64,000 bases of DNA from Psammoneis japonica (taxonomy: Eukaryota). The DNA is taken from positions 124,001-188,000 of the forward strand of contig QPGO01000052.1 in the NCBI GenBank assembly GCA_008632985.1, written 5' to 3'. The notes beneath the pieces are model-generated. The model was not told the DNA's origin. It was given only the letters and a program-made list of their open reading frames with translations, and did no database searches. Below, in pieces: positions 1 through 37,549 of this stretch (its first letter is position 1; every line of letters starts with the position of its first letter). Both the position numbers and the translations under genes were made by a program.

Positions 1-89
1 ACTTCTCCCTATCAAGTCTCCCTCTCACATGCAAGCTTCGTTATCTTATCCAACTCTTGTGCAGCTGCTGGAAGCGGTTCGAATTGAAT

Positions 90-3000
90 ATGCCGAGATT
101 CACGGCACCATCATCATCGGATGAAGATTCGCCGTCGGCAAATCCTCTCTACGAAAAACTGACTCTTGATTCGCACATATCTAAAAGGAGGAGGGGAAAA
201 CGAGACAAGGATCGGAATTGGTCTAAGCGACGGAAGTTATCTGATGAAGCGAACAAAGCTCCAAAGTATCATTCAAACGGGGTGAGGAATCACCAAAGAG
301 AGCTCGACTCGAAACGGTCTTCAGAGCCCCTCCGCGCCCGCCAAAGCTCGCGTGAGACGGGCCGCGCTGAAACTATCCAATACCAAGAATATCTGACGTG
401 GACGGAGATTGATAAAAGCCTAGGGCCTATTCTCGGGGAATGCGACACTTCAACGACCCTACTTGGTTAGGAGGCCGATTGGATTGTCGGAAGAAGAAAC
501 GAAAGCTCTGACCACGACTCGAGTTTGCAACGATTTCAAACCATTTCAAGGGCCCAGTAATGAAATTCGAAAACGAAATCAAGGTAAGCGACACGCATTT
601 CATTTTGTTGCCAGCGCGATCACGACACTTTCTTCTCATCGACTTCATCTCTTTCTTTTGAATTTAGAAATAGCGAAGGCACCTTCTGCCTGGCATTATT
701 TTGTCAACGATACGAAACCGGCAGTCACTCCCAAGCAAACTTCGAGCAATACTATGGAATCGAGCAGAGCTCTAGAGGCAAACGGATTATCGTCTGACAC
801 GAAAGCCGGGAGTGCCGTTGTCTTGGACGCGTCTGGTGTTGTGAATCAGCGTGATACCAGCCCAGCTAGATTCAAGACGCAAGGGGGCACTGGAGGCCGC
901 CCGGTGCTTGTCAATAGCACGAATCATCAAAGCCTTCGCCGCGCTTCCTCTGGCAACCATTCAACTCGGACAAGGACATTTTCTTCTGCAGCCACTCCAC
1001 CCAAGAAGAAAACGCATCGGCCACTCTATCCCATTCCGGGTGTTTGCGAGACGAACGAAAAGGAAAACCAAGAAGCTGAACAAAACAAAGTCAACTGCAT
1101 TTCGTCCAAAGCTCCGCCCAACAGAGGTGTCAGGTCTACCAGCCGCAGTAAAGCAAATTCCGCATCACTTGATAGAGTACGCACTGCGTCGACAGTGGAT
1201 GCTGGCCTCGACAAATCCAGCTCCAAACGGAGTGGTCCTTCCGCAAAAGCGACACCTGCCACAAATGAAAACGTCTTTGCAGCCACCGCAGATTCAATGT
1301 TAGGTGCAAATAAGAGTCCTGAAAACAGTGGCTTGTCAGGGCACACTGTTTCAAATGTTCGCGGTAAGACATTGGTTTGATTTGTTTGCATCTTGTGTTT
1401 TTTCTTTACCCAATGCTCATTCTTGTCAATTTTTGTCTTGAATCTGCTATCCTTTAGTAGATGGCGCATCTATCAACACCCGGGCTGCTACGACAGTGGA
1501 AGTTGTCGCCAATGGATCAACATCAAGGGAGGACACAACTCAAGTTGCCAGTGGATCCGAAGTGCGAAGTGGGAAATCTCCTTCTGCCACTTTTTTGATT
1601 GGTGCAACCATGGGTATAGGAAGCACGCCCACTGCTGATGGACAAGAACGGGACGCCCTCAAGAAGACATCCGCTTCACCGCGTCAGTTTCCTGTTGCCC
1701 ACAACAAGGAAGGGCCAACCAAACATTTCATACCTCCTTTTTCCCATTACAATGCAGAGCCAACCGAAGATACGGCAAACGACTACGACCACACGGGGGA
1801 AAATCTTATAAGAAATGACAGTTCCATATCTCGATTGAGTGTGTACGATGCAGATTCGTTCGAGGTGAAGGGAGAAGAAGAAGCAAATAAAGAAGTCGTT
1901 GATAGCACCGTTATAGCCGCATCAGTCACACGAGTGCGCAATCTTGCCTCTGGAGTACCCCAAGTTGCGAACGGAACTGATGAGATGACCAACTTACAGG
2001 GACCATGTTCGGCAAGACGCCGCGACCAAGTTCAAGGTAAGAAAATCGACTCGCTTTTTGTTGCTGCCTGTGCGAATTGATTGTTGTTGCCACGACCTCC
2101 TTCATACCTTGCCAGTGCCTTCTCCTTTGTTTCAAATAGACGCAGACAATGGATCTTCTTGCGACAATAAAGGGCTGCTTGTTATCTCCCATGAAGAGGG
2201 AGAGGAGCAGGCCAAGGCACCCACGCCTTTCGCGAAAGCCGGCGACCGTGAATCTAGTGGATTAGGTACCTGTAGCTCGTTCATTGGAGGAGCGTCCGAC
2301 GGGTGTGGCCTTGCTTCGAAGGCACCCGCTAGAACGACTAAGAACGTTACCTCCGATGGGTCAATGGATCCAACCAGCAAATTCTCAGACATTTCTTCGA
2401 AAGAATCAGTTTTTACCCTGGATTCGGAAATGCCGAAGGGCAAGAGCAGTGAATGTTGTCCACAAAATGAAACCGCTGTGACCGTCACGGACTCATTACC
2501 AACGCAAGACCCGAGCGAGGAATGGAACGAAGAAGTCGATGACCGCTGCAAGCCCAACACCAAAGATTCTGCCATTTCAGAATCAGCGATACAAGTGCAC
2601 AGTGTTGCCTCTAGATCGTCACAAGCTGCAAACATATCCGATGCAATGGCCTCCTTGAACGGAGAAAGTCCCGCAAGAAAACGCAATCGAATTATAGGTA
2701 GAGAATATCTCGTGTTGTTGCTACTTGCACGACCGTAATTGTTGTTGACGCAATCTGCTGCAAATCAGTTTCAGATCATTTGCTGAATACAGACATAGGC
2801 AATGAATCTTCTGGTGACGATAAATCGCAGCGGTTTCTCTATGACTCTGATGAAGAAGAGGAAGGAGAAGTCAATGCGCCCGGATACTGCACGACAGTTG
2901 GCGACCGCGGAGCTAGCACTGTGGGCTACTCTGCCGCCGAGGCAGGAGCCTCCAATGTCTCTACTGAGGATACCGAAACAGCTACAATTGGTGACTTGAG

Positions 3001-4025
3001 CGGCGTACGCTTGGAGGATCCGTCTGCTACTGCGACCGGGACTCTGAGGTAGTTTGCTCCTGTCAAGGAAACTGCCAAACCGTCGAGAAAAGAACGTGTG
3101 AACAGAAGAAATAACGCGGTTGTGGGTGCTAGAATTATGCCCCTAGCCGAGGCTAAAGAACACGGATTTTGTTACGACAAAAGGCGCGTGCCGGTCGGAT
3201 ATTGCATTCCGGACACTTCATTTCGTATTCTGAAGCGCATGATTCCGGACAAAAAGGAGAGAGCGAAACAAGATATTTCTAAGCTGGCGATTCGAAACGA
3301 ATTAGCTCCAAGACGCGAATGGGTATCGGCCAAGAAATTCATACCGTTTTTGAGAGTAAAGGATTCGAAGCGCAAAAGTTACGCCACAACGAAAACCAAA
3401 GTAAACTGGAATTGCTTCTAAAAGGAGAGGGCGTGTATCTTGTGATCATTGATTTTGGGACGAGGTTGGCAGGAAAGTCAAACACGCAGTGGCATATTTT
3501 GCAGAGAATGGCGTCCTTATGGACACTCAGCCTCGTCTTACCTATGTCAAGCTTGATGAAAGGGATCGGGAGTTGTTGAATCGCCGAGACGACAACGCGA
3601 AACAGACAGCCAGAGAGATCTTTTGGACGTTATTTGATCAGCGAAATATCATCGACAGCATATTCAAGATCACAAGGAAAGTGGATCCGACAGCGGCATT
3701 AAGTCAAAAAGATAAGGAAGACACTTCTTCAGATACCAACAAGGTTGTAAGACAAGTGGAACCGACCGTGGGAGCAAGTCCAATGGAGGAGGACGACACA
3801 GCTTCATATGTACTCAAGAGACAAGAACCCTTAGATGAACAACAAGAACGGATAAAACAAAACAGGAGACAGAGACGCGCAAGAAACAAAAAGAGAAGGA
3901 AAGAGGCCAAACAGGCGAAGAGGGAGGAAGAAAGAGGCTCTCAGAAATGGCTGCTTCGACCGAATAGATGTGTTCGAATCCTACGACTGTTGCAACGACA
4001 CCGTTTTCACTACACAAGAAAATAA
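90..4025 (+). CDS. Multi-exon orphan gene 'A': long low-complexity S/T/E/K-rich region plus a conserved C-terminal globular domain (GYCIPD...KGFEAQ...EGVYLVI...HAVAYFAENGVLMDT); function unknown
   Basis: ATG at 90. GT-AG introns at about 584-670, 1364-1460, 2037-2139 and 2698-2774 join ORFs 57-470, 463-1380, 1496-2080, 2058-2738, 2780-3421 and 3319-4025. Collinear homology to the inverted paralog at 37550-41530. Several 1-bp frame breaks (about 465, 3040, 3350, 3470); those at 3040 and 3350 sit in homopolymers, so they are probably sequencing indels. Confidence 0.65.
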
Positions 4026-5625
4026 ATTGGAAAGTATAAATTATACCGGTATTTTGACTAGCTAGCTCTAGCTAGAGAAGAATCTAGAGCAACAGGAGGA
4101 GCAAAGCAGCGCCATCTTTTTGCTGGTCGGACGTCGTAGTTGAGCAAACCACTGTACGGTACCGTAGCTAAAAGCGGGCACCACAAAATAGCCAATTTAG
4201 ATCACAAAAATGACATCACGAGAAGGCGTTGCGTGCAAAATTGAATGCGTGTAAGTAGAGCGCCATTATTTTGGGAAAGTATCTATTCTGAAACGAGAAA
4301 AGATTTGAGCTATAAGTACAGTTTGTGAGCATAGCTGCGTACGAGTGAAAACCTTACGAAACAACAAGCGAACACCCAGAACAGCAAACCACTTGCTTTG
4401 GTTGAAATCTATCTCCCCCCTTGTTCAATAATATCATTCGTACCTTCGCTCTGTTTGTGTTAGCCTCCTTAGTATGGCCGGCTGAGAACAAATGTAAATG
4501 GAATCGGCAAAGGTCAAGTGACTGGCCACGTCCCACGTCTTTCAACGCTCTGTTCCTCCTCACCGTCCTCACGACAACTGACAGCAAAAGAACCAACTTG
4601 GCATTCTTATTTCCACAAACACAACGATGAACTCCAGTCTCCACCCTGGTCTTGATAACCCTTCACGAAACATGGTGGATAGACAATGTGTAGTCTCGTT
4701 GCAACGTCCGCCACGGAAATATTGTGAGTTCAAGCGTCCAAGACGAATTCACCACGACAACTCTAGCCATCTACAGCACCGCATTGCCCATGGAGCAGAC
4801 CAGACTAGACATTAACACCAATTTGATGGTCGTTGTCACAATATACTGTCGGCTGTCGGCACGACGAGTGTCATTATTTTTGCACGCTAGTTGCCATTGC
4901 CAGCCCGGCAACATCATATCATTGTGGGAATAGAACGAAAAGGCAAAAATTTTGATTCAAGAGCGTGAGGCTGAATTCCGCATAGCACGCGAAACGAAGT
5001 GCAGTGGGTGTACGAAAGCTAATGAAGGTTTGGAGCAAACGATTACTTGCTCAAGGTCACCATCGTCGGCGGTTGGCGACAGGCGACATGGAGGCAGGCG
5101 ACAGGCGACCCAGCCAGCAGCCAGCCATTTTCAGAGCTTCGAAATCGAGTGGCTTCCGGCTTCCAGATCCGAGTCAGCGGGCTCTTTGAAAACTAATACT
5201 TATGTATATATTCTAGAGCAACATAATTTATATTTCATTAAATATGATAGATACGAAAAGTAAATTTACATTTAAACATCTACATATCTTATTTCATCAG
5301 TGATCCTGTGCTATGTTCTCTTCTGTACATACAGTGCTGAATAAGTTTCGCAGCGCATCGCTGTTTCTCTTTTTTCGGCGAGCGAGCCAGTTTTCAAAAC
5401 CAAAACTGAAACTGCTCAGAACTTCGCCAACACAATGATAGGCGGCGATATCCGTGCGATTGTAGTAGTCGACAATGGACAATCCATCAAGCTGTCCTGC
5501 TCCGAGTGAAGCTCCAAACAGAACACCGAGTACAAGCCCTGCTCCCAGCTTGGAGCACAGTGCTCTAACGCCAATGCCTTTCCATCCACCGAGAGCGAGT
5601 CCCGCTCAGAATGATGTACAGACTC

Positions 5626-5650
5626 ACACGACACGACACGACACGACACG
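5626..5650 (+). repeat. (ACACG)5 microsatellite
   Basis: Five direct copies of acacg. Confidence 0.9.
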
Positions 5651-5660
5651 ACAACCGAGT

Positions 5661-6285
5661 CGTAGTCCTGCTCGAGTGATACGCCTAGTACGACTCCAAG
5701 TAGCAGCCCAGCGCCGAGCTCTAGTCCAAATGCAGCTCCGTTGTAGCTAACAACTGAACACTCGATGTACGTAAATTCCAAAATTGTGAGCATCAAAAAA
5801 GTAAAGTTTTTGGTAAAGACTGACGCGTGTTTCGCTCTTGTTGTCGTTGTCAAAGTTTGAAAGTCCCGCACCAAGTGATACGCCCAGTACGACTCCAAGT
5901 AGCAGCCCAGCGCCGAGCTCTAGTCCAAACGCAGCTCCGTTGTAGCCAATAACTGCACACTCAATGTACGTAAATTCCAAATTTGTGAGTATAAAAAAGT
6001 GAAGTTTTTGGTAAAGACTGACGCGTGTTTCGCTCTTGTTGTCGTTGTCAAAGTTTGAAAGGGACCCCGTCGTAGTCCCGCACCGAGTGATACGCCCAGT
6101 ACGACTCCAAGTAGCAGCCCAGCGCCGAGCTCTAGTCCAAACGCAGCTCCGTTGTAGCCAATAACTGCACACTCGATCGATGTACGTAATTCCAAATTTG
6201 TGAGTATAAAAAAGGGAAGTTTTTGGTAAAGACTGACGCGTGTTTTGCTCTTGTTGTCGTTGTCAAAGTTTGAAAGGGACCCCGT
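5661..6285 (+). repeat. Three-copy tandem repeat of about 200-212 bp; each unit is a Pro/Ser/Thr-coding exon plus an intron-like segment
   Basis: gtgatacgcc.agtacgactccaagtagcagcccagcgccgagctctagtcc... starts at about 5676, 5875 and 6087. It reads SPAPSDTPSTTPSSSPAPSSSPNAAPL*, followed by GTACGT...actgac...tcaaAG. Confidence 0.9.
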
Positions 6286-6359
6286 CGCCTAAAACTACCC
6301 CGATCCAATGGCTCCGTCAACCCTGGGGCCCAAAAAAGTATCTACACTTTATCCTACAT

Positions 6360-7273
6360 CAATTCCGAATCGGCTTGGCCCACCTGCTCCGCCTCTCGCA
6401 CTATTGTACTGAGTCCGAATCCAAGTCCTCCCACTACTACACCGGATCCGATCCGATCCAACTCCATCACCGACATTAGCCACTTCTGCTTGGGACAGAG
6501 AGAGCCAAGGGAATGTCCACACTTGGACGTAGCATTTTTTTAGCAATCCCTTTTCGTTGGCTGCACCTTGAGCTCTCTTGTCCCACACAGCAACCCTTAA
6601 TTTGATGAGGGTTTATTGGTTGGATCTGGCAACAGCGTACTGAGCCCGATCCTGCCACACAAACAACCCGACACCGTTCCTACTCACCAATTCCGAATCG
6701 GCTTGGCCCATCTGCTCCACCTCTTGCACTGCTGTACCGAGTCCGAATCCAAGTCCTCCCACTACTACGCCGAATCCGAATCCGATCCAACTCCATCACC
6801 GACATTAGCCACTTCTGCTTGGGACAGAGAGAGCCAAGGGAATGTCCACACTTGGACGTAGCATTTTTTAGCAATCCCTTTTCGTTGGCTGCACCTTGAG
6901 CTCTCTTGTCCCACACAGCAACCCTTAATTTGATGAGGGTTTATTGGTTGGATCTGGCAACAGCGTACTGAGCCCGATCCTGCCACACAAACAACCCGAC
7001 ACCGTTCCCTACTCACCAATTCCGAATCGGCTTGGCCCATCTGCTCCACCTCTTGCACTGCTGTACCGAGTCCGAATCTAGTCCTCCCACTACTACGCCG
7101 AATCCGAATCCGATCCAACTCCATCACCGACATTAGCTACTTCTGCTTGGGACAGAGAGAGCCAAGGGAATGTCCACACTGGACGTAGCATTTTTTTAGC
7201 AATCCCTTTTCGTTGGCTGCACCTTGAGCTCTCTTGTCCCACACAGCAACCTTAATTTGATGAGGGTTCATTG
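6360..7273 (+). repeat. Tandem repeat of about 328 bp, at least three near-identical copies running into the assembly gap
   Basis: caattccgaatcggcttggccca recurs at about 6360, 6688 and 7017; the unit contains a PSPNPSPPTTTPNP-type coding stretch. Confidence 0.92.
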
Positions 7274-8200
7274 NNNNNNNNNNNNNNNNNNNNNNNNNNN
7301 NNNNNNNNNNNNNNNNNNNNNNNNNNNNNNNNNNNNNNNNNNNNNNNNNNNNNNNNNNNNNNNNNNNNNNNNNNNNNNNNNNNNNNNNNNNNNNNNNNNN
7401 NNNNNNNNNNNNNNNNNNNNNNNNNNNNNNNNNNNNNNNNNNNNNNNNNNNNNNNNNNNNNNNNNNNNNNNNNNNNNNNNNNNNNNNNNNNNNNNNNNNN
7501 NNNNNNNNNNNNNNNNNNNNNNNNNNNNNNNNNNNNNNNNNNNNNNNNNNNNNNNNNNNNNNNNNNNNNNNNNNNNNNNNNNNNNNNNNNNNNNNNNNNN
7601 NNNNNNNNNNNNNNNNNNNNNNNNNNNNNNNNNNNNNNNNNNNNNNNNNNNNNNNNNNNNNNNNNNNNNNNNNNNNNNNNNNNNNNNNNNNNNNNNNNNN
7701 NNNNNNNNNNNNNNNNNNNNNNNNNNNNNNNNNNNNNNNNNNNNNNNNNNNNNNNNNNNNNNNNNNNNNNNNNNNNNNNNNNNNNNNNNNNNNNNNNNNN
7801 NNNNNNNNNNNNNNNNNNNNNNNNNNNNNNNNNNNNNNNNNNNNNNNNNNNNNNNNNNNNNNNNNNNNNNNNNNNNNNNNNNNNNNNNNNNNNNNNNNNN
7901 NNNNNNNNNNNNNNNNNNNNNNNNNNNNNNNNNNNNNNNNNNNNNNNNNNNNNNNNNNNNNNNNNNNNNNNNNNNNNNNNNNNNNNNNNNNNNNNNNNNN
8001 NNNNNNNNNNNNNNNNNNNNNNNNNNNNNNNNNNNNNNNNNNNNNNNNNNNNNNNNNNNNNNNNNNNNNNNNNNNNNNNNNNNNNNNNNNNNNNNNNNNN
8101 NNNNNNNNNNNNNNNNNNNNNNNNNNNNNNNNNNNNNNNNNNNNNNNNNNNNNNNNNNNNNNNNNNNNNNNNNNNNNNNNNNNNNNNNNNNNNNNNNNNN
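7274..8200. other. Assembly gap (N run)
   Basis: Continuous Ns. Confidence 1.
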
Positions 8201-9200
8201 TCATTTTGTTTTGGGTTTTTGCATGTCGAGAGTTCTCTTTTGCTCCCCTCTTGTTGGGTCGTCCAGTCAGACACCCTGACTGAAAGCTTTCGTGCACCAC
8301 TCTCATGCAAAAATTTCACTCAACTGTCCCACTGATCTTTTTAGCCAGGGATCTTACAGGCAAGAACAATGCAGAGGCCTTGAAGGCCGTTGCGTGCTCT
8401 TCAACATTTCATTGCTTGCCGCAGCAACTGTGTGATCATTCAGGGTGGTCTCCTGTGTCTGTTTCTTGACAGCTGCTCTTCATCGTCAAACCCAACACAG
8501 CTGCATCAAGGGAGTGCAACCTTTCAGCTTTAGATTTCTTGCAAGTCAAGAGTTTCCCTTTTGCTCCCCTCTTGTCAGGTCATTCAATTGGGTGCCCAAA
8601 TTGAAAGCTTCTGCGTGCTGTCCTCATGCAACAACTTCACCCAGCAACCTTTCCAATCTTTTTAGCAAGGAATCTCATGGGTGAGAACAGAACGGAGGCT
8701 TTGGAAGTCACACTCTGCAACATTTGATTGTGCGCCACAGCAACTTTGTGATCCTGGGTGGTCTTCTGTGTCTGTTTCTCAGCTCTGTGACCTTTCATGT
8801 CTTTTGTCTCACTGCAGCAACTGTGTGATTTGGGGTGGTCTCTTGTTTCTGTTTTTTGACAGTTCTTCATCCTCAAACCCAGTGCAGCTGCATCATGGAA
8901 GTGCAGCCCTCCAGTTTTTGGATTTCTTGCAAGTTGAGAGTTTCCCTTTTGCTCTTCTCTTGTCAGGTCTTTCAGTTGGGTGCCCAAACCAAAGCTTCCG
9001 CACACTGCTCTCATGCAACAATTTCATCCAGCGACCTTTCTAATCTTTTTGGCAAGGGATCTTGCAGGTGAGAACAGAGTGGAGGCTTTAGAAGTCACAC
9101 TCTTCAATGTTTCATTGCTCGCCACAGCGGCTTTGTGGTTCTGGGTGGTCTTCTGCATCTGATTCTCAGCTCTGCAACCTTTGATGTCTTTCATCTCTTT
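8201..9200. repeat. Degenerate three-copy tandem repeat (periods about 320 and 388 bp)
   Basis: gca.gtc/tg/aagag...ttttgctc..ctcttgt recurs at about 8221, 8541 and 8929. Confidence 0.85.
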
Positions 9201-9499
9201 GGATTGTGTTGGAAGAACATGTGTGCAAGTCAATCAAGATTTGTTCAAAGGTTTGCCATGTGCTGCTCCAGATGTCAGAGGGTGTGGCAAATGGCGTTGA
9301 GGGTGGAATTGATCTTTTGCCATGTCACTTCATCTGAGACAGCAATTGCCATTTTTGGTGATCTCTGAGAGAGCCAAAAAGAAGCAATGCCATAGCAAAG
9401 AGGCTGGAGACCATGGCACCCTTGCTTTCTGCGGCAGCACTGAGATGTGTTCCCAGAGCACATGAGTCAGATTTCTGTCCCATCACATTTTGAAGCCAT

Positions 9500-10560
9500 G
9501 GTCAGGCGACTCTTAATGAAACATCAAGCGGCGCCACCTGGCAATGTGGAAAAATCAGAACATGCAGGGGGGCAGGCGATGGCACCTGCAATGGCTTTGA
9601 ATGTTCTTGGAATGAGATGCAACATGTTCTGTGCACAAACCAGAAACTGCAGTGGGCAAAGTCATGGGGTTTTTCAAGGAGATTCATTTGCCAATTTCCC
9701 CACAACACTGAGCACCAGGATGTTGCTTTCACATGCTTCTCTGAACTTCAGAAACAACTTCTGTAAAAGCCAAAATGTGTTTGTTGTAGCAGCATCACAC
9801 TGTCAAGCTCCACAGCATGTCCAGCCTTTAAGCTGTTGTCAGCAGGTCAAAAAAACCTGCAAGAAACAGTGCATGGATGTGTTGCTTGCATGCAGGGTGT
9901 CAGCTTTCATTTCCCACCCCAGCGGCATCCATCATTTCCACATGTTTTGTTTTCCTGGAAAGCTGGCCACTCATGGCAGCACAACAATGTGTCAAATCAT
10001 TTGCCACAACAAGATGGTCGACATTCCCAGAGCACATTTGCTAGATTCCCATCCCAGCACCACATGCTTTGGAGCCACGGTTGGTTGATTCTCAATGAAA
10101 TGTCAAAAGGTGATGCATGGTGATGTTGAAAAATCAGGAAATGTGTGGAACCACTGCTGTGATGCCTGCAATTGCTTTGCATTTGTTTTTGAAGCAAGTT
10201 GCAACATCTTCAGTGCACACACTCCGTGGAAGCTGCAACAGGCAAAATTGTGGTCCCTGAAGGAGACTCATTTGCTGCTTTCTTTGCATCACCAAGCTCC
10301 AGAACACTGCTTTCTGCATGCTTCTGGGTTTCTCTTTGAAAATGTCTTCCACAAACCTCAAAATGTGCCTGTCATTGCAGTGCTGTGATGCCAAGCTTCA
10401 CAGCTTGCCTTGCCTTCCAGCAGCTGTCAGTGGGTCAAAAAAACCTGCAAAGGTGGTGTGCTGCTCACAGGGTGTGAGCTTTTGTTTGCCCAACCCAGCG
10501 CTGCTGTTGTCTCCACATTTTTCATTTCCCTTGCAAGCTGGGCACCTGTGACAGTGTGAC
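9500..10560. repeat. Degenerate direct duplication, period about 585 bp
   Basis: gaaaaatcag at about 9549 and 10128; ggtcaaaaaaacctgcaa at about 9845 and 10433. Confidence 0.7.
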
Positions 10561-13500
10561 AATTTGTCAAAATCATTTCTCTCAATGAGACAGCCAATGT
10601 TTGCTCAACTCTCAGCACAGATTTCCCAAGTGAGAAAATTGCTGTGTTTGGTGAAGAGATGTTCTGCACCAGAGGCAGCCTGCCACTGATGTGTTCTTCC
10701 TGTCTGAGCAAAAAAGAAATTCCATCCAAAGTCAGCAGCATCTGAAAAAAGCTGACAAAGGCTCAGATGTTCATGCCAAAATGATGCACAGGCAAAGGGA
10801 GTGCAGTGCCATGCAGCCTGCGAGAATTGCAAGGTGAAACAACACATCTTTGTGCAAGGCAACCAGGTCCTCAAGCTCATCCACCTGTTTCACCCATTGC
10901 CCTGCACACTGCCAGGACCATGCGGTGCTCAAGCCAATGGTGTGAGCCAAAGTGCAGAGTCTAGCGGCACCAAGTGTCCATGTCTGTCCAACCCACTGTG
11001 GTTGTCTTCCATGCTGCAAAGAACTGCACTCTTGCTTCTGGCACTCTTTCAAATGCAGTTGCATGTTTTTTGTTGCCAGAGTTGAAAAGAAAGCCACACA
11101 CATCACAAGCACTCAATGCAACAACTCGTTGACAGCATGTCACAGGCAGCAGGACTGACTGGCTCTGATTTTTTTGCCGGCTTGTCTGTCTGTCTCAATG
11201 CCAACCACACTTGGGCTCTTTTCTCCTGCTTGCTTTGGGAGGAAGAAATCCATTGTTGGCATGGCTTCATTTGCACTGTCATTGCTGCTTGCAGATGAAG
11301 ATGACAGCATGAAGTCACCTCAAATTCTCTGATTCTTGGGAGCACAACAGTGTGCGTGCAAGCTGCTGAGGCAAAACATCATTGCAACAGTGTGGTGTTG
11401 TTGCCCCCTGCTCTCCATCTTTGCCACACTGGATGCAGTGGAAAAAAGTTGAGTGGGCAAGTGGCTGCACAGCAGAGTTGCACAGTGAACATGTGGCCAG
11501 TTGAAGCCAATGATTTAGAGTTTGTGAAAATGCCAAATGCACAAACAAGGGTTGGGGACACCTTGTTTTGGTCTGTGACTCCGGCACAGCACCAGAAAAT
11601 GAACAACAGCCAGCACAGCATGTGCAGCTGTGTTGTGTTTGCACCAGTGTGGATTTCTTGCAAGTGCCATCAAGTGGGTTTCAGCACCAACATTTGTGTC
11701 AGTAAAAAGTGCAGAAATTCTGGCTTGAGGCTGTTGCTGAAGACAGAGTTGCTGCTGCTGTGGCAGCACTCTTTGCCAACATCCAAAAGATGCTGTGGCC
11801 TCACTGCCATTTGCTCCAATGCAGCAAATCAAGAAATCCCACATTGGGTGCATTTCTTTCTCCTGGGCAAGTGTAAGAAGTGCTCACCTTGCTTTGCACC
11901 AGCACTCTTGAGCAGCAGACTGGGGCATGCCAAGTGCCAGCAACCATGCCCCAACGACAACAAAAGAAAACACTCAATTTTCTTCAAAGCACAAGGCACT
12001 TGACATGGGTGCTGCTGACTGTCCCAGCTGATCTCTCAATCCAGAAGCACAGAAAGGCACCAAGCTCAAAACTCACAGGTGCCCTGCAAGAATGTGAACA
12101 CCTGCTGGAGTGTTTCTCAAAGACCAGCTTGTGCTCCTTTGCTGTTGAAGTTGTTGGTGTGGAAGAACCAAAACTGGAGTTGGCACTCATGGTTGTTCTT
12201 GGAAAGAATGTCGCCTTGTGCAAGCACAGCTTTGCAGCAGATGAGCATCTAAAAATGCTGCAAAATCCTGACAAGGTGCTTGGCAGTTGTGGCAGCAATG
12301 TGAAGCCTGCTTTGAAGAGGCCAGCTGCAAGATTAAAGAAAGAGTGTGTCACAAGCAAGAGACTTGCACAAAGCATTTGGTCAAAGCCACTGGTTGTGTG
12401 AAAGACTTTCCAGGCAACAAAGCACACAATGACCAGCTGATGGAATTGGAAGACAAAGAAGAAAGCAATGATGAAGCACATTGTTTGGGACCTGACTTTG
12501 ACAGAGCAAGTGGGGCTGGTGCCAGACAGTTGTGTGCAAACCAAATGTGTCAGTGTGCTGCCAGCTCACAAGTTGCATGTTTTACATTTTCAAATCCTTC
12601 CAACCAACTTTGAAAAATAAAGCTTGAAAACAAACACAGCCTTTTGAGACAGATTGTCCATCATGCAAGACACTTCATCTTGTGTGTCACCCAAACATCA
12701 GCTCTCTAACATGCCAAACTTTTCACAGGGAACACATTGTGGTGTCCAGAGTCAAACATCCAACCGACACAAACAACAACGCAGTGGTTGTGTGAAAAAC
12801 AGCAAAGCAACAGCTTTGTGCCCATCAAATCTTCAACAACACAACTTCTGGGCTTGTTGCAAATCACTTCTCTCTGTGCAGATGGTGATGCTTCAAAGCT
12901 GCGACAGTTTTTGGAGGAAACCTGTGTTGCAAAAACCCTTCATTTGAGCTGCAAACACAAGTTGATGATTGCCAGCTGCACCACAGCTGGTGGACACATT
13001 GATGTTGTCTGCAGTGCAACCCTTGCAAGGGAGAAAAATGCACAAGAAGTGTTTTCTGAGCCTTTCTTTGGGAGTCTGGCTGGACAACAACCACCAGTTG
13101 TTGACAACCTGCACTGAGCTGCACATTGTAGAACATTTTCTTGTGGCAACTTGCATGCTTTGCTGGGCTTTAGACTCTGAACAGCCTTGACTGCTTCTGG
13201 GTGCTGCCCTGCTTTTAAAATTGCACATGGCCTGTTCCCACAAACAGCATTTTTGATGTTGACTGGCTGCTGTCCAAGTTCAAAAACCAAGAGGCTCTTC
13301 TTCTCCTGTTTTGTTGTCATCTGCCACAGAGTGCTCCTTGGCTTCTTCTGCATCAAGCACTTGCACTTTGTCTGCTTCTTGACAAAAATCTTTCTGAAGT
13401 TTTCTTGACAAGAATCTTTCTGAAGTTCTTCTTGTTTCTTCAATTTCCCAACCTGCTGTTGGCTCAGCAGCACTCAAATGTTTGAGCATTGTTTTTTTGG

Positions 13501-15199
13501 CTTTTTCAACAACAGATCTTGTTTTTTGACATGCCAAGACCCAGAAGGTCATGCCTTGTTCTGCTGCAAGAGCTCAGCCATTGTGCCCATTTTCACACTC
13601 CCAGCCACACAAGTGAAGGGGAAAGCCATGCAGCCAAGAATCTTTGGAGCATGTCAAGGGGTCAATCTGTTTCAACTGCCTTGTTGCCATGAGACGGTTG
13701 GTGTCATCACAAATCAACTTTGCTTCAAATCATGCAGTGCAGCATTTTTTCTGAAGCTGAGGAGCTCAAGTAAGAAGACCAGCACCACAACCCTCTTGCA
13801 CATTGTCAAGTGACTGGCACTGCAGTTTGTTGAAAGACATTTTGCAGAAATTGCAAGGCTGGCACATGTCTGTGAAAATGGAGCTGTGCAAACAAGGAGC
13901 TGTGTGAACTCTTTCATTGGCCCATGTTTTGCATTGCACAACATGATCATCTCTGGGAGTGCATCAGCTGCGACAGCAGAGAAGGCAGGCAGCAGGTGAC
14001 AGAGGGCAGGGTTGCAGAATTTTTCTTGCACATGTCTTGTGTGCCATTTTGCACATGCAGCACATTTCTTGCCAAAGCAGGCATTGCTGTTTGGACAAAA
14101 AATTCCATGCAAAAACATCTTGCTTTCTCTTCCTGAAGCAAAACAGTGACCCCATTTCTGGGTGACCCCAAAGCCATTGCACAAAATCTCACACAAAACA
14201 AACACCAGATTTTGAACACAACTTCAAAAAACAACACACCGCAGCACCACTGCAATTGCTTTTGTTGTTTGCAGTTTGTCATTTCCTTGTTGGGCTCACC
14301 TCTGCACCAGAAGGGCAGACAACTCAAAGCAGTGCCATTGGGTGCACAGTGGACCAGCTTGAGCTGCTTGCCAGCACATGACAAGCCTGGCAGCAATGCC
14401 CCAACTTGGTGCAAGGAAGTTTGGAGTCAGCAAGCATCAACTCAAACTCAAACATTGGTTTGGATGAGCACAACACTGGCAACATTGCAAGTCAGTGTCT
14501 CCATTGTTGCACCAGCAATGTTGTCAGTGGACATTTTGAGCACTGAACAGGCATTGTTGCCAGTGGCTGTCTTGAGCATTGTGCTGGCAACATTGTTGGC
14601 GGTTGCCTCAATGGTGCTGCATGTTGTGCTGTCATTGTCATTGTGGTGGGTGCCTTGAGCATCACAAACAGCAGTGTTGCTGACCAATTGAGCACATGGT
14701 TGTCAGGCAGTTGCTCCACCTTTGGCATGGATGCATGCGGGGTTTGTGGCCCCTTGTGAAGATCAATGCCAAAAGTCCCAAGAACAATGTGAGTCATCAT
14801 TGGCTTGTTTGGAGCATGGATGGTGCAATCAGGCAGCACAGCCAGCCTCACCATCACAATGCAGAGCTCTCTGATTTGACTCCCTTGAAAACCAGTGGTT
14901 GGATCAAGAAGTTGCCCAGCGTTCCACTGAGCAGACCCCCATTTGAAAGGATCTGTTGCACCTTTTCTGGGTGCTTTGTAGAGAATGTGCAAAGAGCAGC
15001 CATCTTGTTCTATGATGCACAATTAACTTTTCTGATGAGGGACAATGTGCCAACCTGCAGTGCTGCAGTTTGGAGGGTGTCAGTGCTCTGAGACAAGACA
15101 ACAGCAGGTCTTGCTGGTGCTGATCTGGTTGCCACGACACCACCAGAGGGGATTCTCATTTTCCCCAATTTTTAGAAATGCTGGTGTGAGCGGCAGGGG

Positions 15200-15793
15200 T
15201 GTGTTGGAACATCTGGATCACAGGGACCACAAGAAACCTGGGTTCTCTGAGGAAAAGATGCTTTAGCTCCAAAATGTGGTGAACCAAGTGAAGCCACTGT
15301 TTGCTGAAGATTTTTCTCTGTTGCCAACCTTCCATCACCATTTTTGTCTCACACTTTGGAGTGAATCATTTGGCTCACTTGGCTCATTTGATTTGTCACC
15401 TGCTGCTGTTGTCATTTTTGAGTTTGGAGTTTGTGCTGACAACTTCAGGGCAACCTGACAAGTGCCACAGGAAGCCCAGCAGGGCCCCCTTTTGGCAACA
15501 TCAATTTTCTGGTTCGATGTCACCTGGAGGTTGTCAGTGCAAACTTTAAACTCACAAAATGACAACAACAGCTGTCCAGTGATGATGCTGAACAACATGT
15601 CAAGTGACAAACCAAATTGCTCACTCTAAAAAAGGAGGTGAAAGCAGAGGCAAGGGGTTGGCGACAGAGGAAATTCCCTGCCAGAGACCAGTCACTTGAG
15701 TCAACCACATCAGGAGTCAAAGCATCTTTTCCTCAATGGGCCCAGTGCAGGTTCTTTGCAATCCCTGTCCCCGTGACACAGGTGTTCCAACAT
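15200..15793. repeat. Degenerate inverted repeat (arms of about 260 bp, spacer of about 60 bp)
   Basis: 15201-15457 (tgttggaaca...gaggaaaagatgcttt...gttgtcatttttgagttt...ctgacaac) matches the reverse complement of 15518-15793. Confidence 0.8.
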
Positions 15794-17127
15794 TTTTTGC
15801 TGAACAGCTTAACAAAGCCCACTTGCCCCACTTTTGCTCACCTGAAAAGTGCTTGCATGTGCTTGAAGAAACCTCCTGTGCAAAGCAGGTTGATTGTGCT
15901 TTTTGCTGAAATGACATGAGGCAGGTGGGAGTGATGCACAGACTGCACTGCATTCTTGGGTGGAAATCCAGCAGCTGCAAGCAATGAATCTACTTGATTT
16001 TTCTTGCAAAATCACCAAAGTCCACCAGCAAGCATCTTGAGCCTTGCCTTGGGTGATGGCATCATTTCAGTCCTTTCATGATCTCATGTGATGGGCTGCT
16101 TGGCAAAGAAGCCAAGGCAGCACTCTGGTTGACAGCTGCATGGCTCTGGGAGCAAGCAGCAGAAGCCACCCTCTGAAGCATGTGGTTTTGCAAATGCAAG
16201 CACAAGCACTGCAGTTGTCAAAGCCACTCACATGTGCCTCTGAGGGTCCCACACATGCCCTCATCCCAGCTCAGCTCCTGGCACCCAAACAGGGAGCCGC
16301 TCTGCCCCTCTACAAGAATTGCCTCGCCAAGTCAAAAAATGACAAAAGCACACAGGTTTCTGCATGAATTTGGCACAAAACGAGTGCAAAGCTGCCCTCT
16401 GGGCACCACAGAAAAAAAACCAGCACCTTTGATCACTTCATTGTTGCTGCACTCTTCTTTTCATCATTCAACTGAGCTGTTGTTGCCATGACATTGCATG
16501 CCTCCACATCATCTGTCAGTGCTGAGAGATTGCGCTGCCAGAAACAACTCAACTTTCATTGGCTGCTGTTCAGTGCCCTCAAGGGGAGGTGACACTGGGC
16601 TTGAAGGTGGAACATGGCAAAACTGTCAGCATCATGCTGCCATCACCAAGTGAGTGCAACATGACTCCAGCTCTTCTTGGAGCAAAAGAGTTGATGCCCA
16701 TGAAGGAAAAACCAAAACAAAAAGTGGCAAACAAACAGCTCAGTCAATGTGACCACTTGTTGGAGTGGCCAACCAGTGGCAACAGTCACAGCAGCTCTTC
16801 TTGTCAAGCTTGGAAGCTCAATTTGTCCTCATCACATTGTCTTCTCTTCAAAAGTGAAGCTGAGAGATTGCTGGAGCTTGAAGATCTTGAGTTTTGTGGC
16901 AAGAGAAGAAGCAAATTTGCTTTTGGCAGAAGGCACTCCAGTCATTCAACATGTGAGACTGCCATGAGATTTGGCCACTGGCACTGCACAGGAAGCCTGG
17001 TGGGATTTTCTTTTGGCGACATTGACTTGCCAGCTCAACATTCACTCTAAAGAGTTGTTTGCTCATGTTGAGTGCACACCTGTCCATCAGTCCATCAGAA
17101 GATCATAAGATCATTGATGTCTGCACC

Positions 17128-18790
17128 ATGAGCAACAAAGAACATGGGAGGTTTGGAAAAGACCATGATCAACACAAGGGTCATGGTGGAAAAGGCAACA
17201 AGAGCCACACCAAGAGCAAGAAGTCCTTCAAGCATGAAATGAAGTTTTCCATCCTTCAACCCTGAACAGCAACATGTGCAATGCAGCACGCAAAGGTGTC
17301 AAAGAGAAGATCAGCAGATGCACACAGAAGGAGTTTAAACAGGGCAAATGTGTGGCAAGGTCCCCAGAGGACATGACGCATCCTGACTTTATTGCAGAAA
17401 AGCCAAAATTGAAACAGCCAGAGATCACACCCAATGAAGATGACTCCACATGCAAGGCTGACCCAAAGGACATTGAGCACAAGAACAAACAGTGTGAGTG
17501 CAAGCATCACACAGAATCCAAAGATTGCTGTGCCAAGCTGAAACAGTTTGAAGAGAACAAATCAAAGGCACCTGCCATGATTGTGGATGATCGACATCTG
17601 TTCTGTGCATTGACCAAGTCCCTGAAGAACACACTGCAGGTGAGGCAACAAGAGAATGAGTCCATTGCAGAGTGCCTGTCAAACGATTCAAGAACCAACA
17701 AGACTCCACCAGAGATGGTCTGGGTGCTAGCAAGATGCTAAATGGGTTCATTGAGAACATCAAGGAGCACATGACAAGTGGCGCTGGCAAGCAGGCTGAG
17801 CTGAAGAAGATGGCGTTTGAGGCCTGGACTGATTTCATGTTCATCAAGAACAGTGACGACCATTGCTGCAAGACATTGAAGCAAAGTTTTGTGAGAGACT
17901 GTGCAGTCTGGGAAACGATGCATGCCCAAAAGACCTGGACAGAGCAATGGATGCATTGCTCAATCATGAGTGGGGCAACAAGCAGAAATGTGCCAAGAAT
18001 CCTGACCATTGTGACAATGAGAATGGTGAGGACAAGAATGGGAACAAGAGCAAGAACCAGAGCCATGCACAGAAGGGTGGCACACAAGGCAAGACAATGT
18101 GCCACTGTTGCAGCAAGAAAGACCACAAGTCCCCAGATTGCCAACACAAGGACAAGGCAGCTGCCAATGACTGTTTCAAAAAAAGACCAGAAGGAAACCA
18201 GATCCAAGAGGGCAGAGTCATGCACAGATGAGAGATGACAATGATGACCACTCTTTGGTGGACAGTGATGTGAGCATCAATGCCACCAGATTGGCATCAT
18301 CAACCTGTTCAAGCTGGAGCAAGGGAGCTGCTTGGCACGGGTCACAACTGGCCAATGAGTGACCAGAGACAAGCATGAGCCAGACCAGTGTGGGCATTGA
18401 GGCTGATGAGATTGTCCTTGACAACTGCTCTGCCCTTGACATGGCAGCAAGCTGGAGATTGGTGCACAATGTGTGACAATGTGTGACTGGCAAAGATCAA
18501 GATTGGCCCATCCACAAACACAGGAGTGAACACCCTGGACAAGAACTGCACTGTGCCAGGTTGGGGCAACATGAAGCTGGGGTCAAAACCCACAACAGCA
18601 AACATCCTGAGTCTAAAGGATGTGAAGGCCAAGTGCCACATGATGACATGCTGCAAGAACCAAGTGGTGGAGGTGCTCCAGCTGCTGGACAAGAAAACTG
18701 GCAAACAAGTCACAGCATTTAAAGCAAATGACATTGGACTGCTCTTGTGCACGCCACCTTGGCCACAATGGCTGCGGCAGAAAGAGATGC
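17128..18790 (+). mobile_element. Decayed Ty1/Copia (diatom CoDi-like) gag and protease fragment
   Basis: Gag-like stretches (VKEKISRCTQKEFKQG; QQENESIAECL/KRFK; CPKDLDRAMDALLNHEW), zinc knuckle CHCCSKKDHKSPDC, protease-like IVLDNCSALD and ANILSLKDV. Frameshifts and stops present. Confidence 0.75.
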
Positions 18791-21840: not shown

Positions 21841-22399
21841 CTCATTTTGGTGTGCAAGTGCAACCCCATGTGGGGCTCCATGCATGCATGCGCCATGCAC
21901 AATTCTGTGATGCACCATGCAGACATCATGAAGAGACATGAGGAGTGAAGATGCTGCACTCTACAATGGTGCAACAGCAGAGGCCACCATTTGAAGTTCC
22001 CACCACTTCATGGCAACTGCAGCATTGTCTCTGCATGCAACAATGTCCCACAAGTGTGCATGTGCTGCCATCAGAGTGTTTGGACCACATGCTGAGACTT
22101 GTTTTGTGGCAATTGAAAAAGCAGATGTTGCCAACATGGAAGTTGTTTTTAGGCAGGGTGCCCCATGGATTCAAAGCACAATCTCTGCCAGTCTTCCAAA
22201 ATGACCAAATCATGCATCAGGACCATCTGAAGATCAACGCTTGCTTGGCAGTTCTGAGGCACTCATGTGGGGGTGGTGCAGCAGCCAAGCTCACAAACCA
22301 CCATTTAATGTGCACCTTGGCAGTGTGCCAATGACAGGAACATTGTCGCTGCCCAGTGCATCTCCAAATTGCTGATGTGTGCCAGAACATGACATGTTC

Positions 22400-23130
22400 A
22401 TCAACAATCATTTGTGCTGTCTTGTCAAGAAAGACACACTGTGGCAAGGCTGCAAGAAAGTGCTGACAACTCTGCCACATCATCATCACAAAAAAGTGCT
22501 GTTGGCTGTCTCATGCAAGCTTGAACAACAATGTGATGAACTCCTGCAGTTTGAGCAAAACAGGCTGCTCTCCTTCACACCAGCCATCAATGCTCATCTG
22601 CAGTCTTGTCACATCATGAAAGACACGCTGTTGTGGCACAGCTGTGGGAAAGTGTTGACATGCCACCACCATGTTGTCATTGTGTTGGCACCATTGGTCT
22701 CTCCTTCAAATTCGAACAAGCCAGTGACTCCCACAATTTGAGCAAAAGTGGTTGTTCTCTTTTTGTGCCAGCCATCAGCACTCATCTGTGTTGTGAAGAA
22801 AGACACCCTGCAACAAGGCTGCAGAAAAGTGCTTGCAACACCATCATGAAAGTGGTGCCAGTCTCATGCAAGTTTGAACAAAATGATGAGCTCTCCTGCA
22901 GTTTGAGCAAAATGGGCCATTCTGATGCACCAGCCATTGGCACTCATCTGTGTTGTCATGTCAATGACAACATTGTGCCATTGCATGGCAGCAGAAAAGT
23001 GCTGACAGTTCTGCCACCACACTGTCATCATGTTCATCCATTGGCCTCTCATGCAAATTTGGGAGAGCCAATGACTCCTGCACATCAACCATCAGTGCTC
23101 ATCTGCATTGTTGCATCAAGAAAAACATGA
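22400..23130. repeat. Degenerate tandem repeat, about 4-5 units of 160-190 bp
   Basis: catc/ttgtg..gt...aaagacac...aaagtgc/ttg recurs at about 22409, 22595, 22783, 22945 and 23100. Confidence 0.7.
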
Positions 23131-37540: not shown

Positions 37541-37549
37541 TCACCGCGT

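Follow-up and report, generated by a model that had tools for sequence, protein, structure and literature searches.

The window analysed here, a stretch of 64,000 nt from contig QPGO01000052.1 of Psammoneis japonica, opens with a spliced gene (A) whose GT..AG introns at 1363-1456, 2035-2113 and 2696-2766 are defined by the contigs of run X2. It is followed by a long block of a type that we call M2, from which the dinucleotides CG and TA have been nearly erased, by a zone (M1) that contains a decayed copy of gene A (B), and by a second M2-type block (Table 1). Over the two M2 blocks together (32,050 nt) the observed/expected ratios (o/e) are 0.13 for CG, 0.06 for TA, 1.88 for TG and 1.81 for CA, versus 0.96, 0.60, 1.18 and 1.15, respectively, in the normal DNA of the window (26,273 nt). 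Only 236 CG and 139 TA are left in these 32 kb, a depletion near saturation. The fractions of A, C, G and T are nonetheless the same as in normal DNA to within 1-2 points, with a G+C content of 0.48 in the block vs 0.49 outside. The edges at about 37540, 42010 and 61030 are sharp to within tens of bases and lie in gap-free sequence. The right edge of the long block coincides with the end of a copia pol remnant, and its left edge is hidden by an N assembly gap (7274-8200). Within M1, TA is nearly missing from about 38500 to 42010 and mildly reduced at 37550-38500; another assembly gap (40687-40953) falls inside this zone. Just outside the long block, near-identical repeats at 5659-6287 (91-92% identity) and 6352-7273 (94-96.5%) have normal CG and TA.

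Table 1. Features of the window, with positions counted from its first nucleotide.
Feature	Positions	Strand	Basis or remarks
Gene A, normal composition, unmutated reference for B	90-3568	+	Spliced contigs of run X2
M2 block, CG and TA nearly erased	8201-37534	.	Dinucleotide o/e
Repeat unit U1	8201-8528	.	MAFFT alignment
Repeat unit U2	8521-8916	.	MAFFT alignment
Repeat unit U3	8909-9215	.	82% identity to U2
Old tandem duplicate in block	9450-10002 / 10024-10578	.	67% identity; 32 CA/TG doubles vs 6.18 expected
Old tandem duplicate in block	22399-23078	.	70% identity; 17 CA/TG doubles vs 2.95 expected
Second copia-type pol, weak trace (RNase H part)	25269-25631	-	tblastn to P0128, E 4e-07
Dispersed duplicate in block	29926-30102 / 31144-31318	.	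73% identity; 8 CA/TG doubles vs 1.83 expected
Copia-type pol remnant (reverse transcriptase and RNase H)	35642-37534	+	tblastn to P0122, E 5e-147
M1 zone	37535-42010	.	TA o/e 0.13 but CG 0.73
Copy B of gene A, decayed, inverted, partly re-duplicated	37721-41530	-	DNA alignment
Second M2-type block	61030-63750	.	Dinucleotide o/e; abrupt left edge near 61030

The pol remnant at the right edge of the long block has the domain order expected of Ty1/copia, an RVT_2-type reverse transcriptase, then RNase H, and at the end the conserved pol C-terminus, and is best assigned to that group. Its Pfam match to RVT_2 (E 3.6e-07) has a bit score of 30.5, just below the cut-off of 31.6, and no integrase, gag or LTRs were found with it. 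Nine stops interrupt its frame, all of them TGA; its 631 codons include no Tyr, and the catalytic YVDD box has become CVDN. Pfam searches, which took in sets of 17, 18 and 82 ORFs, returned this RVT_2 remnant as the only in-block match and no recognisable protein remnant over most of 8-35 kb, so that the label of a 'transposon island' rests on the two copia traces. Weak matches to DUF6439, CDRT4, Orbi_NS3, SRP54, DUF2304 and RET_CRD (E 0.004-0.03, all below cut-offs) are attributed to chance, and an Rfam search of 8201-12000 gave no match. ORF lists from the block are worthless as gene evidence because TGA stops are the only ones that remain. Copy B is a DNA-level copy and can be aligned across the second intron of A. 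We regard the block as probably a silent, sharply bounded domain with transposon and pseudogene remnants in a diatom-like nuclear genome.

The left end of the long block consists of three repeat units spaced by 321 nt and then 387-388 nt, a copy number that is a minimum because the assembly gap truncates U1 on its left. U1 is the most diverged unit (~71% identity to U2 and to U3), and U2 carries a 77-nt internal duplication (8713-8797 / 8790-8874). The first-pass annotation had read these copies as independent outcomes at the same TA and CG sites, and the strings on which it relied are found exactly and share columns in a MAFFT alignment: atctTACAgg (8351), atctCATGgg (8672) and atctTGCAgg (9059); gtCGag (8225), gtCAag (8545) and gtTGag (8933); ttttAg (8339, 8660) and ttttGg (9046); and ctttGgaag in U2 aligned with ctttAgaag in U3. 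U1 has kept a CG (8227) and a TA (8355) that are gone from U2 and U3. The proposed ancestral TACG at 8355-8358 stands for its first dinucleotide, where TA/CA/TG indicates TA, but the second (CA/TG/CA) could derive equally from CG or TA, which makes TACG one of two equally parsimonious ancestors.

All three copies are present in 267 columns of the three-way alignment, 100 of which are variable, 78 by transitions only; the pairwise differences are 92, 80 and 56, with 71, 62 and 46 transitions among them. Dinucleotides that read CG, TA, TG or CA in all three units number 42. Among them 23 are variable, 16 of these having both TG and CA, and five show three distinct states (three CA/CG/TG and two CA/TA/TG). 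The anticipated enrichment of variable columns for TA- and CG-derived changes is present but modest: such columns make up 39 of the 100, and the variable share is 0.46 inside CG/TA/TG/CA dinucleotides versus 0.33 outside. Many transitions thus fall outside these dinucleotides and form a large background, which implies that the process may be less context-pure than stated.

A stronger signal than column enrichment is the double difference in which one unit has CA where the other has TG, seen at 11, 11 and 8 aligned dinucleotides in the three pairwise comparisons of the units. Expectations were obtained by placing the transitions and transversions of each pair at random, in unchanged numbers, 2000 times. 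The U1-U2 pair has 10 such doubles for 2.55 expected and the U2-U3 pair 10 for 1.45, values reached in none of the 2000 simulations in either case. Including the three older duplicates of Table 1, the doubles are 4-7 times the expectation in five of five in-block pairs (0/2000 simulations each), whereas neither of two control pairs outside the block has an excess. The transition/transversion ratio is 1.6-5.4 in the block duplicates vs 1.4-1.7 in the control pairs. The earlier proposal that the copies took independent outcomes after duplication is therefore well supported, inside the block and not outside it.

The direction of change is given by the pol remnant, in which consensus Tyr and Arg columns were defined from five outgroup copia proteins. 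None of the 14 consensus Tyr (TAY) is kept; seven are His (CAY), six are Cys (TGY) and one is Phe. Consensus Arg is kept at 6 of 28 columns, and 17 have become CAN (9) or TGN (8), including two TGA. In three control relatives, Tyr is retained at 11-13 of 13-14 columns and Arg at 18-19 of 20-22. The outgroup comparison thus shows that TG and CA are not ancestral, in agreement with the direction first proposed, and the balance of His and Cys from Tyr and of TGN and CAN from Arg, within one element, agrees with the strand symmetry claimed for it. Editing of RNA or cDNA before integration, ADAR-like (A-to-I) and APOBEC-like (C-to-U), would yield A-to-G and C-to-T changes as the two deaminase outcomes, and the recognisable remnants are retroelements, which APOBEC3 (G-to-A) and ADAR (A-to-G) inactivate through clustered transitions. 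However, such editing is single-strand specific, and hence asymmetric by nature, and occurs before integration, whereas both strands of the pol remnant are hit equally, the tandem copies diverged after duplication, and integrated host-derived DNA, the intron-retaining duplicate B, is also affected. We consider this origin scarcely conceivable.

The same signature is present in independent data. Five of 158 public copia relatives contain less than 1% Tyr and have Cys or His at the consensus Tyr positions; four of the five keep most of their Arg and one has lost it, with Arg retained in the Tyr-less relatives at 10/15, 10/14, 5/6 and 4/7 consensus columns. Loss of TA with CG largely kept is seen in the public ORFs P0177, P0224, P0269 and P0272, the first of which is a Tyr-less copia ORF open over 2061 aa. 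Among 80 metagenome copia loci, two have TA o/e values of 0.04 and 0.18, with CG at 0.20 and 0.10, and 11 are CG-poor only. In one metagenome locus (L037), all five leftover TA belong to in-frame TAC (Tyr) codons.

A bias of this kind could in principle be imported or selected, the block being viral, horizontally acquired or functional DNA that avoids CG and TA. In the available part of PMC3829696, many RNA viruses and mRNAs are described as suppressing CpG and UpA jointly, with UpG and CpA in excess, so that the same two dinucleotides are low and the same two high as in our block; the leftover in-frame codons of L037 also indicate that selection can add to the pressure. That bias is mild and attributed to selection on functional RNA, whereas the depletion here is near-total (0.06 for TA and 0.13 for CG), equal on both strands and located in non-functional DNA, with 30 kb lacking recognisable genes and a pol ORF that has been destroyed by its TGA stops, its loss of Tyr and the change of its catalytic box. 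A foreign source is further opposed by the sequencing depth of the block, which equals that of the host flank, and by the host-gene paralogue B, which is affected in place. Selection or import is accordingly a very improbable source of the signature.

Gene A serves as the reference for B in a comparison that has no outgroup and in which the copies are only ~67% identical. Of 49 aligned TA of A, eight are intact in B and 24 have become TG or CA, with three changes in the reverse direction. The corresponding figures for the 81 CG are 27 intact, 29 changed to TG or CA and 18 in reverse, and other dinucleotides of A are intact in B at about 55-60%. T-to-C change per site is 0.30 at TpA and 0.13-0.19 in other contexts; the A-to-B substitution counts are 65 A>G, 49 T>C, 42 G>A and 38 C>T. 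A tblastx comparison and a frame check of the nucleotide alignment gave fragmented matches in several frames, B being re-duplicated internally and the window containing indels. B has lost TA while CG was largely spared (CG o/e of 0.73 in the zone), so that the TA process can be told apart from CG decay and is an activity of its own. The first-pass annotation, which saw one corner of a 30-kb feature, did not have this separability among its points.

Two forms of context-specific hypermutation that act on silenced repeats have been described, the decay of methylated CpG, seen in vertebrate genomes and in CG-methylated transposons, and the repeat-induced point mutation (RIP) of fungi; C changes to T in each. 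The block resembles the former in the conversion of CG to TG or CA on both strands (nine CAN and eight TGN among the changed Arg codons), in its confinement to silenced repeats and in the excess of TG and CA, and the 11 metagenome loci that are poor in CG alone have this CG-only pattern. Methylated-CpG decay, however, leaves TA alone, whereas the loss of TA here is even deeper than that of CG, and it does not account for the whole signature: TA stands at 0.13 where CG is still at 0.73, the Tyr-less public relatives mostly keep their Arg, and G+C is steady. RIP in ascomycetes depends on RID/DIM-2, acts in a premeiotic stage and makes C:G to T:A changes only, chiefly CpA to TpA, which creates TA and AT-rich isochores. 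A RIP-like, duplication-triggered defence would sense homology, for example through the RID-related DNMT4 enzymes present in many diatoms, and mutate repeats in bursts. Like RIP, the process recorded here inactivates transposons and duplicated genes by transition hypermutation, in sharp blocks and with independent outcomes in each copy; it has struck retroelements and a gene duplicate, and P0177, still open over 2061 aa, would fit a burst, though no stop can arise from the loss of TA in any case. In the available part of PMC9998398, the DNMT4 of diatoms is placed in one group with fungal RID, and its function is given as unknown. The changes found here nevertheless differ from those of RIP in polarity, since half of them are A:T to G:C, among them 13 of the 14 consensus Tyr changed to His or Cys. 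TA is destroyed and not created (0.06 vs 0.60 outside), and G+C stays the same where RIP lowers it. In addition, RIP mutates both copies of a duplication, but gene A is normal and B mutated, the repeats of 91-96.5% identity at 5659-7273 are unaffected, and the edges are sharply positional. Such a defence is, in our view, improbable here.

Separate sequencing runs were compared with the window over 20 kb. Contigs of X1, a separate DNA run, are as poor in CG and TA as the window, at a mean 31-mer depth of about 173-192 in the flank and mostly 137-179 in the block. X2 resembles RNA, as its contigs are spliced, and matched only 1-5.5 kb of the 20 kb, and no RNA run was listed for the block; no contig of X3 matched in this interval. 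X1 and the window differ at 300 positions, 236 of them transitions. Among the differences listed (40 of 303), the flank (7.3 kb) has 12 and the interval 8343-9381 has 28, which corresponds to a divergence of about 0.17% in the flank and about 2.4% in the block. The interval 8201-9400 holds 15 CG and 7 TA in the window, and 12 CG and 5 TA once the 28 listed X1 letters are inserted: six CG and two TA of the window are lost in X1, and three CG are gained. Hence 8 of the 22 surviving CG and TA differ between the two, with two TG/CA doubles, and the other 20 listed differences are spread over roughly 1,150 remaining positions. Allelic or strain variation, or paralogues left unresolved, could account for these differences, and X1 and the assembly may share one sample as their source.

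These data bear on a technical origin, in which modified DNA would have been mis-called as TG or CA by a long-read base-caller, or a contaminant mis-assembled. The window is an assembly of the noisy long-read type, set apart from X1 and X2 alike by about a dozen single-base indels over 7 kb, and an N gap marks the left edge of the long block. On the other hand, X1 shows the same depletion at flank-like depth, which supports the first-pass annotation in setting base-calling error aside, and its differences from the window run both ways. Moreover, the edges at 37.5, 42 and 61 kb fall within continuous sequence, the affected zone contains a paralogue of a nearby host gene, and the change of Tyr to His or Cys is seen again in proteins and contigs of other origin. 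This origin is already largely refuted and highly improbable.

The comparison with X1 also bears on whether the block is a fossil, that is, the signature of an old episode of CG and TA conversion that has stopped, in a block now neutral whose duplications predate the episode. The near-saturation of the depletion and the age of the in-block duplicates (67-82% identity) are in line with such a history. Against it, the window and X1 disagree at 8 of the 22 CG and TA that survive in 8201-9400, the divergence among the differences listed is far higher in the block than in the flank, U1 retains CG and TA that were lost from U2 and U3, and the M1 zone represents an intermediate state. We find a fossil signature unlikely. 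The original statement that mutation is ongoing receives indirect support only, from the surviving sites at which window and X1 differ, and the process is possibly still running.

Based on the above data, we propose that the block was shaped by a DNA-level, strand-symmetric, domain-restricted and context-specific transition hypermutation made up of two superimposed processes, an explanation that we hold to be likely. The first would convert CG to TG or CA and is probably driven by methylation, most likely through 5-methylcytosine being deaminated where repeats are methylated at CG; in the available part of PMC5124317, CG methylation is described for diatom repeats. The second would convert TA to CA or TG, so that T:A becomes C:G at TpA, a palindromic step. 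The TA process is at least as strong as the CG process. G+C would stay at 48% because the loss in one process is offset by the gain in the other, with TG and CA as the sink of both. In copies that arose beforehand or while the process ran, every ancestral CG or TA would have its own outcome in each copy, giving rise to disagreements between TG and CA. In a retroelement, the TA process would erase Tyr codons, including that of the catalytic YxDD box, together with TAA and TAG stops, and would create no new stops. The affected domain may correspond to heterochromatin and the TA component may be enzyme-driven; candidates are adenine deamination and the mispairing of G with a thymine that has been modified or oxidised at TpA. 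Repair synthesis of the Pol-eta type, which has WA hotspots, is not favoured as the TA mutator: AA has an o/e of 1.18, and T-to-C change is lowest at TpT (0.13).

Thymine hypermodification with a preference for TpA exists as 5-hydroxymethyluracil in dinoflagellates and base J in kinetoplastids. Such a system would supply a TpA-directed mark, and mispairing of an oxidised T with G would give the T:A to C:G change. To our knowledge, neither 5-hydroxymethyluracil nor base J has been demonstrated in diatoms, and we know of no genome-wide erasure of TA in the dinoflagellate and kinetoplastid systems. Literature searches on 5-hydroxymethyluracil and TpA in diatoms returned nothing relevant, and searches for joint TA and CG conversion in diatoms or protists, in which subscription journals were thinly covered, returned no description. 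A TA-directed mutation process beside methylated-CG decay is apparently undescribed so far.

A further reading, which we regard as a real possibility though short of an even chance, is that diatoms, or a subgroup of them, own a dedicated and still-active genome defence that acts by TpA-directed hypermutation, independently of cytosine methylation, with some elements, such as L037 with its in-frame Tyr codons, evolving under it. In this scheme, an enzyme would mark or deaminate T or A at TpA in silenced domains and thereby convert T:A to C:G on both strands. If true, this defence would remove Tyr codons, TAA and TAG stops, TATA boxes and AATAAA, while leaving G+C and open reading frames intact, so that it would have escaped RIP-style and GC-based scans.

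The TA process is G+C-neutral and creates no stops, and is for this reason invisible to scans of GC content and RIP indices. It also produces long spurious ORFs, such as the public Tyr-less 'protein' P0177, which affects gene prediction. The signature is nevertheless easily screened, as an absence of Tyr, an excess of Cys and His, and a TA o/e below 0.2, so that genomes, methylomes and mutation-accumulation data already in existence allow a direct test. If our explanation is correct, the near-complete, strand-symmetric conversion of TpA to CpA or TpG would be a third form of repeat hypermutation, of opposite polarity (A:T to G:C), and would imply a novel DNA-modifying or DNA-editing activity in one of the main groups of primary producers in the sea.

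Dinucleotide profiles divide the window into three states, whose boundaries are sharp within tens of bases: DNA of normal composition, blocks in which CG and TA are both nearly erased (M2), and a TA-poor zone in which CG is largely kept (M1). Base composition is the same in each, and what changes is purely how the four pyrimidine-purine steps share the sequence. The repeat units singled out by the first-pass annotation (U1–U3) occupy the left margin of the first M2 block, and the phenomenon is far larger than this repeat. Of the 139 TA surviving in 8201-37500 and 61000-63750, most have the form YTAR (TTAA 39, TTAG 22, CTAA 19, CTAG 11), with RTAY nearly missing (4 cases); neighbouring bases may influence the TA process, or surviving TA may have newly arisen. 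A small island in M2 with raised CG and TA may have been inserted more recently or may be protected. A PPR gene, an RT of copia type and short introns of the GT..AG kind mark the window as eukaryotic, and the mostly diatom relatives of the PPR ORF, at ~30% identity, make its source diatom-like.

Features of the window; dinucleotide values are observed/expected ratios
Feature	Position	Strand	Description
Normal DNA	1-7273 and 42010-61030		26,273 nt; CG 0.96, TA 0.60, TG 1.18, CA 1.15
M2	8201-37534 and 61030-63750		32,050 nt; CG 0.13, TA 0.06, TG 1.88, CA 1.81
M1	37535-42010		4,233 nt; CG 0.73, TA 0.13, TG 1.32, CA 1.54
Gene A	90-3568	+	normal composition; three introns by spliced X2 contigs
Tandem array	5659-6287		period ~205 nt; 91-92% identical; normal CG and TA
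Tandem array	6352-7273		period 328 nt; 94-96.5% identical; at least 2.8 copies, continuing into the gap; normal CG and TA
U1	8201-8528		truncated by assembly gap 7274-8200
U2	8521-8916		internal 77-nt duplication
U3	8909-9215		
Island in M2	19751-20500		12 CG and 6 TA in 20001-20250
copia-type pol remnant	35642-37534	+	end of first M2 block
Copy B	41530-37721		inverted, decayed, DNA-level copy of A from window self-comparison; inside M1
2OG-Fe(II) oxygenase	45346-46844		PF13640, E 4e-14; upstream part 45627-46012
2OG-Fe(II) oxygenase	49320-50908		PF13640, E 2e-15; tandem paralogue of the preceding; upstream part 49562-49950
PPR ORF	51565-53139		named relatives all diatoms bar one; identity only ~30%

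The strings quoted in that annotation are present and occupy the same alignment columns. U2 and U3 are 82% identical and U1 is ~71% identical to either; Tandem Repeats Finder detects the younger pair (U2-U3) only, with period 387. The pairs U1-U2, U1-U3 and U2-U3 show 92, 80 and 56 differences, including 71, 62 and 46 transitions and 10-11, 11 and 8-10 CA-versus-TG dinucleotides, respectively. Among the 267 columns with all three units, 100 are variable and 78 of these are transition-only; 42 dinucleotides are CG, TA, TG or CA in every unit, and 23 of them vary, with TG and CA both present in 16 and three states in 5. The predicted enrichment of variable columns for TA- or CG-derived changes is modest (39 of 100; variable share 0.46 inside such dinucleotides vs 0.33 outside). 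The decisive statistic for the units, rather than this share, is the double difference CA-versus-TG, which represents two transitions at one site. Random placement of the observed substitutions yields an expectation of 2.55 doubles for U1-U2 and 1.45 for U2-U3, compared with 10 observed in each case, a value reached in 0 of 2000 simulations for either pair. All five old duplicate pairs in M2, two repeat-unit and three others (32, 17 and 8 doubles vs 6.18, 2.95 and 1.83 expected), show the CA/TG excess, which is absent from two duplicate pairs in normal DNA in the same comparison. In the oxygenase paralogues, whose upstream parts are 84% identical and normal in composition, single CG/TA to TG/CA interchanges make up 21 of 47 transitions, with no CA/TG doubles. 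The ancestral TACG proposed at 8355-8358 is possible, as one of two equally parsimonious readings, because its second dinucleotide could descend from either CG or TA.

The direction of change was read from the pol remnant, aligned with five outgroup copia proteins from a homology search, a Tyr column being one on which at least three outgroups agree. None of the 14 consensus Tyr columns is Tyr in the remnant (His 7, CAC/CAT; Cys 6, TGC/TGT; Phe 1), and only 6 of 28 consensus Arg are kept (four AGR, two CGT), the lost columns including His 6, Cys 5, Gln 3, TGA 2 and Trp 1. In three outgroups scored likewise, Tyr survives at 11-13 of 13-14 columns and Arg at 18-19 of 20-22. Over its 631 codons the remnant lacks Tyr altogether; its nine in-frame stops are all TGA, and its catalytic box is CVDN in place of YVDD. 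By the outgroups, the ancestral states are TA and CG, and not the TG/CA that the first-pass annotation had weighed against its own reading; its observation of different outcomes per copy is confirmed, and its interpretation as strand-symmetric mutation after duplication is supported. The near-equal His/Cys and CAN/TGN splits show that both strands of a single element were mutated, which rules out that a single-stranded intermediate, RNA or cDNA, was edited.

Copy B, alignable across one intron of gene A, separates the two components. Of 49 aligned TA in A, 8 are kept in B and 24 read TG/CA there, with 3 reverse changes; for 81 aligned CG the figures are 27, 29 and 18, and the remaining dinucleotides of A are ~55-60% retained. 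Per site, T-to-C change is 0.30 at TpA vs 0.13-0.19 in other contexts, and C-to-T change is 0.20 at CpG vs 0.08-0.15. These counts argue that host-derived DNA was mutated in place, its partner copy being spared, and that TA loss precedes, or occurs without, CG loss. The 91-96.5% identical repeats at 5659-7273 lie outside the block with normal composition, which points to position or chromatin, and not duplication as such, as the trigger. Both arrays are found immediately to the left of the assembly gap, with depths of 545 and 266 in X1, a separate public DNA run, vs ~175 elsewhere. A and B are inverted relative to each other and flank the first M2 block, an arrangement that may or may not be connected with the block's origin. 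Copy B is re-duplicated internally: A 2783-2914 has two matches in it, 38809-38678 and 38494-38411, and the match of A 2319-2729 is at 39540-39130.

Run X1, possibly from the assembly's own sample, contains 60% of sampled words of 8201-18200, and its contigs span flank and block at similar depth. Against X1, the window shows indels of one base in the genic flank and substitutions in the block, with 300 differing places over 20 kb (236 transitions). Among the 40 of 303 differences listed, 12 fall in 1-7273 and 28, all transitions, in 8343-9381; with these 28 X1 letters applied, 8201-9400 has 12 CG and 5 TA vs 15 and 7 in the window. This region is equally poor in either version, so the depletion is not specific to the assembly, which bears out the annotation's exclusion of base-calling error. 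Among the differences listed, 8 of 22 surviving CG/TA are not shared by window and X1, at least three CG occur in X1 only, and at two sites TG in one version faces CA in the other. Such differences fit, and possibly reflect, diverged alleles or strains in which the surviving sites continue to decay, locally at a very high rate; paralogous contigs are a possible alternative. The indels in 1-7273 split the frame of gene A into several ORFs and look like uncorrected consensus errors of a long-read type assembly; they occur against both X1 and X2, a run with spliced, RNA-like contigs, at 435, 3037, 3053, 3346, 3452, 3930 and 4933, and against X1 alone at 2699, 4268, 5157, 6187 and 6450.

The same signature recurs outside the window. 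The RT remnant served as query in an exhaustive profile search, which gave the best 150 relatives, and of 158 relatives aligned over 200 residues or more, five have Tyr below 1% in the RT region (P0177, P0224, P0254, P0269, P0272), their consensus Tyr columns being mostly Cys or His; they come from several ENA assemblies, Logan and NCBI. Four of the five retain most consensus Arg, as in the TA-only state of M1, whereas P0254 has lost Arg as well, as in M2; P0258 shows a partial pattern. P0177, a predicted protein of public data, has an ORF open over 2061 aa with one Tyr, and keeps 0 of 36 Tyr of its nearest normal relative, 27 being Cys or His. Double depletion is found in 2 of 80 metagenome copia loci, L037 (TA 0.04, CG 0.20) and L036 (TA 0.18, CG 0.10), the third-lowest TA being 0.36, whereas 11 are CG-poor only; CG-only decay is thus common, and TA loss rare and distinct. 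In L037, a 1,789-nt contig, each of the five TA that are left belongs to an in-frame TAC codon, which hints that some elements may be evolving under selection against TA-loss pressure. The matched RT frame at 554-1546 of this contig is open, and its YxDD box reads CVDD.

Based on the above data, the changes are DNA-level, strand-symmetric and context-specific transitions from CG/TA to TG/CA, confined to bounded domains, and their TA and CG components can be uncoupled. The CG component would be deamination of 5-methylcytosine; repeats of diatoms carry CG methylation (PMC5124317). The 32 kb of M2 hold ~140 TA vs several thousand TG plus CA, so that, at equilibrium, TA loss would be tens of times faster than gain; the TA component is probably enzyme-driven. 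A target that is a palindromic dinucleotide, as TpA is, is characteristic of DNA-modifying enzymes. Candidate chemistries are oxidation or hypermodification of thymine at TpA to a base mispairing with G, and deamination of adenine to hypoxanthine. Error-prone repair of the Pol-eta type is disfavoured as the TA mutator, because AA is not depleted.

Like RIP and methyl-CpG decay, the process inactivates silenced repeats by context-specific transitions. However, the defining features of RIP, namely polarity, TA gain, G+C loss and duplication dependence, are all absent, and methyl-CpG decay spares TA, which is also lost here. Diatom DNMT4 enzymes cluster with fungal RID, their function being given as not known (PMC9998398); this grouping is a lead, not evidence. 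Literature searches, with limited coverage of subscription journals, found no account of TA and CG being converted together. Judged from a single 64-kb window, we rate the process as probable context-specific hypermutation of silent DNA, with a putative, apparently undescribed TpA-directed component. Since TA loss removes Tyr codons and TAA/TAG and never creates stops, elements lose function with their ORFs still open or even extended, and genomes with TA loss will give long spurious ORFs, as with P0177.
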